Shown here one piece after another: positions 1 through 62,511 of a stretch of 64,000 nt of DNA (position 1 is its first letter; every line of letters starts with the position of its first letter). Source of the DNA: Turneriella sp. (lineage in GTDB: Bacteria > Spirochaetota > Leptospiria > Turneriellales > Turneriellaceae); contig CBDIID010000003.1 of NCBI GenBank assembly GCA_965279515.1, forward strand, positions 896,001-960,000, written 5' to 3'. The translations under genes and the position numbers were made by a program. The notes under the pieces are model-generated. The model was not told the DNA's origin. It saw only the letters and a program-made list of their open reading frames with translations, and ran no database searches.

Positions 1-54
1 GGTCTGCGGCGAAGAGGGCATCCTGCCCGCCGCAGACCTTGCGCATCCCTGCGC
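1..54 (-). repeat. Twin-hairpin A(N)GGA-loop element (copy 1), immediately 3' of tRNA-Ser
   Basis: Minus strand reads GCGC-AGGGAT-GCGC AA GGTCTGCGGC-GGGC-AGGAT-GCCC-TCTTC-GCCGCAGACC; same architecture as five other copies; may be clipped by the window edge. Confidence 0.85.
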
Positions 55-12081: not shown

Positions 12082-13107
12082 TTATTTTGCGGCTTGCACG
12101 AGGGCGATGAGATCGGGCAGCATCGTCTCTGCCGTGAGTTTGTAGTGTTTCATGAGCGACGGTGCATCGCCTGACTGGCCGAACTCGTCGCGCAGGCCGA
12201 TGCGATGCACGCGGCAGGGCTGCTTTTCGGCGATAATTTCAGCGACGGCAGACCCCATGCCCGCCATGATGTTGTGCTCTTCAAAGGTCACAACCAGTTT
12301 CGCATCTTTCGCTTCTGTGAGGATGGTCTTCTCATCGAGAGGTTTTACCGAATATGCGTCAATCACCGTCGGCTTCACACCGGTCTCTTTTTCGAGCAGC
12401 GCCGCGGCTTTCCAGGCCTCATAGACCATGACACCGGTGGCCACAAAAACAACCGGTGCGCCATGGTTCAAGGATGAACCGGGGTCGGCCGAGCCAGGGA
12501 TGGCGAAAGGCCGACCTTTCTGCAAAACGGTTGAACCACCAACTTTAAAAGTATCGGCTGCGCTGTAGATCGACGGCACATTCGGCCGGCCGAGGCGCAG
12601 GTAGACAGGTCCATCAAATGCCACAGCCGCTTTAATCGCCGCAGCGGCGTGAAAATAATCGGCAGGCACAAGTACGGTCAGGCCGGGGATAACCCGCGTC
12701 AGGGCGAGGTCTTCAATGATCTGGTGGCTGGCACCGTCTTCGCCGAGTGTAATGCCGGCATGCGTTGCAGCGACTTTGACGTTGAGGTGAGGATAACAAA
12801 CCGAATTACGCAGAATTTCCCAGGCGCGGCCGGCGGCAAACATCGCAAAACTCGACGCCACGGGTATGAGCCCCGAGAGCGCAAAGCCGGCTGCCTGGCC
12901 GATGAGGTTCTGCTCCGCCACGCCGTAATTAAAGAAGCGATCAGGGTACTTTTCACTGAATTTTTTGGTTTTCGTCGAACCTGAAAGGTCGGCATCGAGT
13001 ACCACGACCTTAGGGTTCTCAGCCCCGATTTCGACGAGTGCCGCGCCATAACCGTCGCGGGTCGCCTTTTTCTCGAGATTTGCAGCGAGTATATCTGTAA
13101 CTGGCAC
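12082..13107 (-). CDS. Transketolase C-terminal subunit (split transketolase), carrying an 18-aa palindrome-derived insertion
   Basis: ATRDGYG, DADLSGST, GVAEQN, GEDGASHQ, GPVYLRL, EEH; GTG start. Confidence 0.93.
   Translation of the reverse strand: MPVTDILAANLEKKATRDGYGAALVEIGAENPKVVVLDADLSGSTKTKKFSEKYPDRFFNYGVAEQNLIGQAAGFALSGLIPVASSFAMFAAGRAWEILRNSVCYPHLNVKVAATHAGITLGEDGASHQIIEDLALTRVIPGLTVLVPADYFHAAAAIKAAVAFDGPVYLRLGRPNVPSIYSAADTFKVGGSTVLQKGRPFAIPGSADPGSSLNHGAPVVFVATGVMVYEAWKAAALLEKETGVKPTVIDAYSVKPLDEKTILTEAKDAKLVVTFEEHNIMAGMGSAVAEIIAEKQPCRVHRIGLRDEFGQSGDAPSLMKHYKLTAETMLPDLIALVQAAK
12465..12516 (+). repeat. Twin-hairpin A(N)GGA-loop element (copy 2), in-frame and antisense inside the transketolase gene
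   Basis: GGTTC-AAGGAT-GAACC GG GGTCGGCC-GA-GCC-AGGGAT-GGC-GAAA-GGCCGACC. Confidence 0.9.
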
Positions 13108-18809: not shown

Positions 18810-18859
18810 ACCTGCCAAGGACGGCAGGTAAAGATCAGGCATGGATGCCCCGGGATTTT
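18810..18859 (+). repeat. Twin-hairpin A(N)GGA-loop element (copy 3) in the leader of the 76-aa gene
   Basis: ACCTGCC-AAGGAC-GGCAGGT AAAGATC-A-GGC-ATGGAT-GCC-CCGG-GATTTT. Confidence 0.85.
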
Positions 18860-19121: not shown

Positions 19122-19175
19122 GACACAGGATGTGTCCAGGCCACCGCCGACAGGATGTCGTCGGTGCGGTGGCTG
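19122..19175 (+). repeat. Twin-hairpin A(N)GGA-loop element (copy 4) between convergent stop codons
   Basis: GACAC-AGGAT-GTGTC CAG GCCACCGC-CGAC-AGGAT-GTCG-TCGGT-GCGGTGGC. Confidence 0.9.
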
Positions 19176-61118: not shown

Positions 61119-61610
61119 ATGAGCGAAGCCGTACACCCACCACGCAAACGGATTGCGCAGATCGGCTTCATCACGATCGGATTGCCGTTTGCGGCGTTTA
61201 AGATTCTCTTCGGCCTGACCATGCCGGCGCTCTGGCCGGGGCAGGCAGCCCAGATCGGCGGCGCGGGGCTTGTTATTCTCGGTGCTCTTGATCTCCTGGT
61301 CAACGCGCTTAACTCCACATTTATGCTGGTTCGCGGAAAAATTTTGACGCAGGTCTGCGTGTTCGCGATCCTCTTCGATTGGCTGGGAAAAAAGAGAGTG
61401 GAGGGCGATAAGGCAACAATCCGTTCCGCGGATTTCGGCACGGCGCTCGATGTCATGCTGTCCTTCACGCTGGTCGCGCTCTGTGTAGGGCTCAATCTCC
61501 TGGCGCGCTTTGGCGAAAGCGAACGGCTGCTGTGGAACCTCAGCGTCGTTGTCAACGTGCTCGGCGCAGGTGTCTCGCGCATCATGGTTTCTATTCTCAA
61601 GGCGGATTGA
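61119..61610 (+). CDS. Hypothetical membrane protein
   Basis: About 4 TM helices; ends 1 nt before the cobB start. Confidence 0.7.
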   Translation: MSEAVHPPRKRIAQIGFITIGLPFAAFKILFGLTMPALWPGQAAQIGGAGLVILGALDLLVNALNSTFMLVRGKILTQVCVFAILFDWLGKKRVEGDKATIRSADFGTALDVMLSFTLVALCVGLNLLARFGESERLLWNLSVVVNVLGAGVSRIMVSILKAD

Positions 61611-61611
61611 C

Positions 61612-62454
61612 ATGGCGGAAAAAACGGCGATCGAACGCGCGGCGGCGATTCTCAAAGCGGCGAAACATCCCCTCTTCCTGAGCGGCGCCGGTATCTCGGC
61701 CGAGAGCGGTATACCGACTTTTCGGGGCACAGGAGGTGCTCGAGCCGGCGGCGACAAGGATGTCGCAGCCGCCGGCCGCGGCGCCGAGGGGCTTTGGAAA
61801 AATTTTCGGGCCGAAGCGACACGAGGTCGCGAGTCGGACGCCGCCAGGATGGCGTCCTTGCGTCCCGAAGAGCTGGCGACGCCCGAAGCTTTTCGCCGCG
61901 ACCCGGCGCTCGTCTGGGAATGGTACAACTGGCGTAAGCGCCTGATCTCGGAAAAGCAGCCGAACCCGGCGCACCATGCGATTGTCACCATTCAGAAAAA
62001 ACTGCCGGAATTGCTTTCGGTAACGCAAAATGTCGACGGCTTTCACGCCCTCGCCGGTCTCGGTGAAATTCTCGAAATGCACGGCAATATTTTCCGCGCG
62101 CGGTGTACATCCTGCAAAGCGGTGCATGCGATGCGCGAAGATGTAGATCCCCACACCGCCTGCCCTGCCTGTATGGCGGCGGCGCTGCGCCCCGACATCG
62201 TCTGGTTCGGCGAGCAGCTGCCGTCAGCCATTCTCGACAAGATCTACGAACGGCTACGTATCGCCGATGTCATTCTCGTGGTCGGCACTTCAGGGCAGGT
62301 TTACCCGGCCGCAGGTTTTGCGGTCGAGGTCAGGCGCCGCGAAGGGCATGTGATCGAGATCAACATTGAAGAGGGCCACAAGGCGTATGCGAACGATATT
62401 TATATCCGCGGCAAGGCGGGAGATATTTTGCCACAGATTGCGGAGCTGGTTTAA
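61612..62454 (+). CDS. cobB: NAD-dependent protein deacylase (class III sirtuin) with two 18-aa palindrome-derived insertions
   Basis: GAGISAESGIPTFRG, YNWR (YxxR), PNPAH, TQNVDG, HG, CxxC...CxxC, LRPDIVWFGE, VGTSG.VYPAA. Confidence 0.95.
   Translation: MAEKTAIERAAAILKAAKHPLFLSGAGISAESGIPTFRGTGGARAGGDKDVAAAGRGAEGLWKNFRAEATRGRESDAARMASLRPEELATPEAFRRDPALVWEWYNWRKRLISEKQPNPAHHAIVTIQKKLPELLSVTQNVDGFHALAGLGEILEMHGNIFRARCTSCKAVHAMREDVDPHTACPACMAAALRPDIVWFGEQLPSAILDKIYERLRIADVILVVGTSGQVYPAAGFAVEVRRREGHVIEINIEEGHKAYANDIYIRGKAGDILPQIAELV
61727..61776 (+). repeat. Twin-hairpin A(N)GGA-loop element (copy 5), in-frame in cobB
   Basis: GCAC-AGGAG-GTGC TCGA GCCGGCGGC-GAC-AAGGAT-GTC-GCA-GCCGCCGGC. Confidence 0.9.
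61816..61865 (+). repeat. Twin-hairpin A(N)GGA-loop element (copy 6), in-frame in cobB
   Basis: GCGAC-ACGAG-GTCGC GAGTC GGACGC-CGCC-AGGAT-GGCG-TCCTT-GCGTCC; first loop degenerate (ACGA). Confidence 0.88.
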
Positions 62455-62501
62455 CCCCACCCCGGCGCAAGCGCCGCCCCTCCCCACGATGTGGAGAGGG
62501 G
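62455..62501. repeat. C-rich/G-rich palindromic intergenic element
   Basis: CCCCACCC-CGGCGCAAGCGCCG-CCCCTCCCCAC-GAT-GTGGAGAGGGG between convergent genes. Confidence 0.65.
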
Positions 62502-62511
62502 TAGAGCGGGA

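Follow-up and report, generated by a model that had tools for sequence, protein, structure and literature searches.

A sequence-only reading of the 64,000-nucleotide stretch of Turneriella DNA analysed here (the window) had proposed that its cobB gene carries two 54-bp palindromic insertions, both in frame and both in the cofactor-binding loop of the encoded sirtuin, and had interpreted them either as a route to new peptide segments resembling that of the Rickettsia palindromic elements (RPEs) or as an intragenic mRNA switch controlled by CsrA. The locus raises the question of what these inserts are, and how they came to lie in the gene of an enzyme.

Two inserts in the cobB gene

The cobB open reading frame (61612-62454, plus strand) encodes a class III sirtuin of 280 aa, according to family and structure matches. 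Its catalytic and zinc-binding motifs are intact, as had been claimed: GAGxS, F-R, QNVD, the catalytic His, four Cys and the Tyr/Arg specificity pair are invariant columns of the CobB alignment, their catalytic, zinc and specificity roles being those usually ascribed to them in sirtuins. The product scores 239 bits on the NCBIfam sirtuin model, whose cut-off is 243, and the match is split at the two inserts. The AlphaFold2 model obtained with a 19-row alignment has a pLDDT of 84.9 (a single-sequence run gave 37 and was discarded) and matches the CobB, SIRT5 and Af-Sir2 (archaeal Sir2) folds. Its core is confident, pLDDT falls below 50 at residues 41-60 (i.e., insert 1) and 79-81, and insert 2 is partly helical with a pLDDT of 54-74. 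In the archaeal Sir2 chain, residues 37 and 42 bracket the position of both inserts, in what we take to be the flexible cofactor-binding loop.

The empty sites and junctions of both inserts were defined by alignment to close CobB orthologues. Empty orthologues read F-R-G-x-x-G-L-W-x-x-x-R-[AP]-E-[ED]-L-A-T-P, and this short loop is present in 75 of the 85 sirtuin loci that could be parsed out of 110; all ten longer loops are from Turneriella or close metagenome matches, which argues against long loops being a broad property of the orthologues. Insert 1 occupies 61729-61782 on the plus strand, as delimited by its junctions in the orthologue comparison, and is of a short-bulge subtype. It is accompanied by an imperfect 8-bp direct repeat (61723-61730 and 61777-61784, plus strand, 6/8 identical), which is a perfect 8 bp in relative G003. 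The native segment A-E-G-L-W-K-N-F-R (61783-61810, plus strand) separates it from insert 2 at 61811-61864 on the same strand, which can slide to 61817-61870 and has a perfect 6-bp direct repeat (61811-61816 and 61865-61870, plus strand) that extends to 10 bp in relative G006. Both inserts are 54 bp, or 18 codons, long and translate as described. The expectation that their removal restores the canonical sirtuin segment agrees with the short-loop orthologues, but not with the bounds originally drawn for insert 2: in the most closely related empty alleles the motif is R-A-E instead of R-P-E, hence 61811-61864 is the better placement.

Each insert had also been equated with one twin-hairpin element; the hairpins overhang the inserts by 3-5 bp because target bases make up part of the stems. 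In insert 1, hairpin 1 (61726-61740, plus strand) has a 5-bp stem and a 5-base GGA loop, its left arm being target sequence, as read from an empty allele in metagenome run X5; hairpin 2 (61744-61776, plus strand) has a 9+3-bp stem, a 3-base 3' bulge and a 6-base CANGGANG-type loop. In insert 2, hairpin 1 (61816-61830, plus strand) has a 5-bp stem and a 5-base loop with CGA replacing GGA, and hairpin 2 (61834-61868, plus strand) has an 8+4-bp stem, a 5-base 3' bulge and a 5-base GGA loop, its right arm overlapping the target repeat. The TTTTCGGG context reported at the start of both inserts turned out to be no more than the F-R codons, and orthologous carriers do not keep this context. It was also rejected as an insertion target, since no more than 3 of the 72 copies of the element described below have TTTCGG in front of them.

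The predicted structure of the cobB inserts is supported comparatively, not thermodynamically. Folded as single copies, the inserts are weak against shuffles (z of -1.8 and -1.5), and hairpin 1 of insert 2, whose basis is comparative, is absent from the minimum-energy fold of the single copy. Among orthologous cobB copies (four rows per insert), 136 of 136 stem cells are paired, and the changes include six double-sided ones and four of the G-U type; in a covariation test on these rows, whose outcome is inflated by kinship, 3 and 28 of 500 shuffles reached the observed values. Many of these stem changes alter the amino acid, and 13-17 of 18 third positions are identical in the inserts, against 45-70% in the flanking gene. 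Three further compensated pairs were found in the AroA insert pair. Eroded copies occur at cobB, RecG, AroA and flgN, and G-T outnumbers A-C among stem mismatches (44 vs 16). In the element, constraint falls on the loops, and the stems vary freely yet stay paired. An Rfam search at cobB yielded no relevant match, and none to RF01731.

A cobB match was obtained in 12 of 13 same-genus genomes. Both inserts are present in G003, insert 2 alone in G006 and G008, and insert 1 alone in G012; G001 has a 5-codon remnant, G002 and G009 have eroded inserts of 11 and 15 codons at site 1, and G004, G005, G007, G011 and G013 have no inserts. Hence, seven of the twelve (five empty, two eroded) hold no intact copy at either site, and an eighth holds the remnant only. 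Of four close metagenome loci, one has an insert-1 allele, another an insert-2 allele, and the remaining two are empty. Metagenome contigs (not raw reads) from two samples of one study, possibly including the source sample, span 61300-62212 and are identical to the window, whereas both sites are empty in a relative from a different study. In the cobB tree, one clade with 100/100 support contains all four states, and the allele of this genome (G000) forms a group with an empty one, supported at 80/76. This indicates gain or exact loss recurred at cobB, two processes the tree does not separate; the patchy presence could reflect repeated exact loss, or recombination of the cobB segment, rather than repeated gain.

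The element family in Turneriella

A rule-based scan of this genome returned 73 matches, 72 of which have standard geometry, so that a twin-hairpin element of 54-57 bp is present in 72 copies or more, against none in a codon-block shuffle. A covariance model built from nine copies gave at least 71 matches (131 candidates scored), and it under-scores other subtypes because all nine have 6-base first loops. A symmetric scan added seven new places. Together, these searches make about 80 copies a fair estimate for the genome. The element consists of a 4-5-bp hairpin 1, a spacer of 2-3 bases and a longer hairpin 2 with a 3' bulge, its loops being of the types ANGGAN, AGGAN or ACGAN. Loop-to-loop spacing is 19-21 bases in 70 of 72 copies, and mean column identity is 59% in a 33-copy DNA alignment in which 5- and 6-base loops are misaligned. 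A repeat signal at period 57 was detected in nine of 72 copies. Tandem, half-unit and one-and-a-half-unit forms also occur; arrays hold 6-10 loops, and in-frame tandem arrays reach about six units. Replication-strand bias was not found (32/72 copies on the leading strand).

Four further copies lie in the window. The first (1-54, minus strand) lies 3 bases downstream of the 3' end of a tRNA-Ser, and the second (12465-12516, plus strand) is in frame but antisense in a transketolase-family gene (12082-13107, minus strand). The other two are intergenic on the plus strand: a degenerate copy at 18810-18859, found by the rule-based scan and missed by the covariance model, and a copy at 19122-19173. 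Over the whole genome, for which ARAGORN predicts 39 tRNAs and no tmRNA, three of the 39 tRNA genes have a copy no more than 5 bases from their 3' end, an arrangement that recurs at four loci from relatives. At 1513090-1513302 of contig C3, two elements and a third insert of a different kind interrupt a duplicated copy of tRNA-Arg.

The element is concentrated in the genus: each of 13 same-genus genomes has at least 24-76 matches, compared with 0-4 in each of 27 genomes of other genera (131 candidates scored in both cases). In a phylum sample with 35 candidates scored per genome, 7 of 150 genomes have at least 1-5 matches. In other spirochaetes (loci L251, L252, L256 and L258), the same twin-hairpin core is nested inside larger, unrelated palindromic repeats. 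A GTDB-wide search with an exact pattern found 33 loci, with paired stems in those titled Turneriella or Spirochaetes but not in most others; one match, from a gammaproteobacterium, resembles TwoAYGGAY, possesses a long basal stem and scores 39.2 bits.

According to our own hexamer gene model, 34 of the 72 copies are inside predicted genes. Pfam matches were obtained for 24 of 28 host ORFs submitted, ThiC, RecG, RecF, AroA, TatD, RNB, polyprenyl synthetase and a cyclase among them. When 56 element clusters from relatives, chosen among the matches listed (150 of 621), were examined, 30 aligned to a coding orthologue in this genome: 26 are clean gains of 18-112 codons, one is shared and three have doubtful frames. 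The gains amount to 18-20 codons in 14 cases, 38 in five, 26-29 in five, and 60 and 112 in the remaining two. At one gene site, head-to-head element arrays add up to 112 codons in G013 (L063) and 38 in G003 (L094). The reverse test agrees, since the inserts that this genome has in RecG, TatD and AroA are missing from close orthologues, and in cyclase paralogues the same site is occupied by copies of different sequence.

Coding copies keep the frame while using all three frames and both orientations, and intergenic arrays have periods of 55-60; the frame is therefore kept by selection in genes, not by the unit. Since coding DNA makes up 87% of the genome, genes are still under-used as insertion sites. 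The encoded peptides are only loosely stereotyped and consist of G, A, S, T, D and P to 59-66%, against 38% for the proteome. The proposal that new peptide segments arise here by a route like that of RPEs is hence supported, as a genus-wide process rather than one limited to cobB.

Proposed movement of the element and rival explanations

The element occurs in many copies, differs in its presence among relatives, has short direct repeats of varying length on its flanks, and preserves its fold and loop motif rather than its sequence. The best explanation, to which we give a probability of roughly 0.7, takes the inserts to be copies of a mobile module, non-autonomous, 54-57 bp long and spread through the genus, whose in-gene copies are tolerated passengers. 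A trans-acting factor would read the element as a single strand, either RNA or single-stranded DNA, through its two loops, and the element would be joined into targets sharing a few bases with its own end. The likeliest form of this, which we put forward tentatively, may be an intermediate shaped as a small circle and recombining at microhomology. Copies in genes would survive only where the frame is kept and the landing site is a flexible surface loop, so that the peptides of 18-20 residues would be passengers and CobB with both inserts is probably still active as an NAD-dependent deacylase.

The direct repeats, which are 2-10 bp at nine junctions and in some cases up to 13 bp, would permit exact loss and tandem expansion. 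In purT, duplicated native codons resemble hairpin 1 and its loop. The excess of G-T over A-C mismatches would fit a single-stranded intermediate, although transcription-linked mutation could also cause it. Nearest-neighbour identity within the genome ranges from 0.59 to 0.97 (median about 0.78), and owing to this divergence no donor-recipient pair showing recent movement is seen.

No mobilising gene emerged from the 14 genus genomes, the element being in 2 of 52 candidate loci, about the chance rate. The candidates rejected as unlinked to the element or patchy were reverse transcriptase (6 of 14 genomes), IS110 (3) and DUF559 genes (11); Y1 transposase (12/14) and GIY-YIG (14/14, mostly UvrC-size frames) are likewise not linked to it, and 0 of 20 Y1_Tnp loci hold a copy. 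The IS200-type transposase genes of the genus (L059, L304-L322) are flanked by perfect palindromes of their own, with arms reaching into variable flanks, and one such palindrome lies upstream of flgN in this genome. The only reverse transcriptase of its genome (L154:775-2310, 511 aa) is opposite a gene that we read as an OLD-type nuclease, and the locus is probably a defence island. A palindrome directly after the cobB stop (62455-62506, fold z of -3.8) is of a repeat type that presumably adjoins DUF559 genes, and two patterns related to it match 106 and 64 chromosome places.

A selfish passenger alone does not explain the perfect in-place pairing of orthologous copies, and this pairing at cobB is among the points in favour of a second explanation, namely that the copies are kept as a dispersed sponge: CsrA dimers would bind their paired GGA loops wherever these occur in mRNAs, in tRNA trailers and in tandem arrays, and the copies would take the place of small RNAs of the CsrB type. 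Such a role would be compatible with a mobile origin too. GGA is found in 119 of 144 loops, 80 of which are ANGGAN hexaloops, and is missing from both loops in only 2 of 72 copies; by motif, the loops match the CANGGANG site and the dimer spacing given in the accessible part of PMC4894983. CsrA is encoded in the genome, with an upstream gene read as fliW, and TwoAYGGAY RNAs have been proposed as CsrA binders (PMC4333381, as far as its text was available). In-gene copies are more often sense than antisense (24 vs 10, p = 0.024) with open frames being equal (164 vs 162), yet among intergenic copies with co-oriented neighbouring genes the two strands are used equally (11 vs 11). In addition, 24 of 144 loops carry CGA, orthologous loops swap GGA for CGA, and CsrA is present in 41 of 41 genomes and therefore does not explain the genus limit of the element. 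No examined site is kept across the genus: a conserved regulatory copy at flgN was rejected, with intact loops in 3 of the 10 starts read and no flgN match at 8 of 18 loci. We regard this explanation as rather unlikely.

It is improbable that no mobile element exists and that each copy was made locally by template switching, as target, inverted target and target. The middle segment is partly complementary to both flanks, direct repeats reach 13 bp, and the palindromes around the IS200-type genes also extend perfectly into variable flanks. However, the loop motifs, the hairpin 2 core and the fixed spacing are missing in empty targets, the first arm is not target-derived in RecG and TatD, and the outer stem of insert 1 mismatches the upstream target. 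A pure triplication of the target is only partly true of the copies.

The CsrA-controlled switch of the sequence-only reading, as an mRNA switch specific to cobB, is more improbable still. GGA occurs in three of the four insert loops on the sense strand, but the fourth lacks it and GGA and CGA forms interchange among orthologous copies. The inserts begin 117 bases into the gene, with the first loop about 120 bases in, far from the ribosome-binding site; one or both are missing in most relatives, most of which hold no intact copy, and equivalent inserts lie in dozens of unrelated genes. Removal at the RNA or protein level, as by a mini-intron or an intein-like process, would account for strong structure conservation inside catalytic genes and is hardly credible: coding copies keep the frame in three frames and both orientations, which a spliced element need not do, half-units exist, and 18 residues are too few to hold an intein domain. 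An assembly artefact or chance can be practically dismissed in spite of the non-significant single-copy fold energies and of covering metagenome runs that may be the source sample, as related inserts are at the same codons in orthologous carriers from independent genomes and metagenome contigs, and the family is missing from shuffles.

Comparison with known repeats

The element behaves like an RPE, yet it is not one. Both are small repeats found as in-frame inserts of numerous unrelated genes; ORFs hold nearly half of RPE copies according to the accessible text of PMC10969869, and 34 of 72 copies are in genes here. At 54-57 bp, the Turneriella element is far below the RPE length of about 105-150 bp (PMC3184786, PMC10969869, both seen in part). 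RPEs, in the same partial sources, have a conserved peptide per family, whereas the stems here are variable and three frames and two orientations are used. The Turneriella element differs as well in forming in-frame tandem arrays and in belonging to a free-living spirochaete genus.

The closest RNA family, which the sequence-only reading had not named, is TwoAYGGAY (Rfam RF01731; background in the available part of PMC2864571). The two share sequential hairpins, GGA-type loops, many copies and variable copy number, and the portion available of a recent preprint reports many TwoAYGGAY copies with mobile-like variation (10.64898/2026.09.22.753630). With the RF01731 model, sub-threshold matches to the core were obtained for some copies: its best score is 30.7 bits against a gathering cut-off of 43, with 20-24 bits in this genome, and none of the 14 genus genomes passes. 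Exact AYGGAY is present in 34 of 144 loops and in none of the four cobB loops. The Turneriella element differs in its many 5-base and CGA loops and in that about half of its copies are translated. No common basal stem was found among the 72 copies (longest flank pairing of 4.57, against 4.55 in shuffles); the outer stem of TwoAYGGAY is itself poorly conserved within the family, in the accessible part of PMC4333381. The element can hence be described as RPE-like behaviour by a stemless, TwoAYGGAY-like core, genus-wide.

In the literature searched, which covered few subscription papers, no description of the element in Turneriella was found, nor, in the text accessible, TwoAYGGAY-like in-frame inserts with empty alleles. 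A term search of the available text of the Turneriella type-strain genome paper (PMC3746428) gave no mention of such a repeat. The accessible text of the preprint (10.64898/2026.09.22.753630) shows no empty sites and sets aside 1,693 of 16,086 matches, in-gene ones in Pseudomonas, unexamined. The alleles with and without inserts presented here, along with their junctions and target repeats, supply what the TwoAYGGAY literature, as far as available, lacks, and make the spread of such elements, and any link of that spread to CsrA, directly testable. They also place Turneriella as a second, independent lineage where a repeat builds protein loops genome-wide, with a unit of about half the RPE size and no fixed sequence. 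Since CobB occurs with no insert, with either one and with both, its four natural states allow the tolerance of the cofactor-binding loop to be compared.

It is conceivable, if doubtful, that the twin-loop core of TwoAYGGAY is itself the mobile unit, a shape-defined module of about 55 bases that a host or trans-acting enzyme would move, with a single-stranded intermediate and short-homology targets. What looks like a "basal stem" in other phyla would on this view be a repeat into which the core had landed, as suggested by the core being nested in unrelated palindromes of other spirochaetes. In Turneriella the module would in that case keep supplying core enzymes with loops of 18-20 residues, along with CsrA-dimer sites transcriptome-wide.

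MITEs and REP/RAYT systems resemble the Turneriella element in being non-autonomous repeats with target repeats and arrays. Unlike a MITE, it has no terminal inverted repeat and no fixed target-duplication length (2-13 bp); unlike REP/RAYT, it has no linked transposase, and the IS200-type genes here carry their own palindromes. With CsrB, RsmY, RsmZ and the CsrA sites of flagellin leaders it shares paired GGA loops on short, variable stems, and its arrays have 6-10 loops. However, its copies are dispersed, polymorphic and often in genes, without a dedicated RNA gene, and the putative CsrA sites are assigned by motif. In the leader of a flagellin-like gene of this genome (C3:3984913-3984953), two native GGA hairpins were observed, the second over the ribosome-binding site, an arrangement that resembles the Campylobacter flaA leader.
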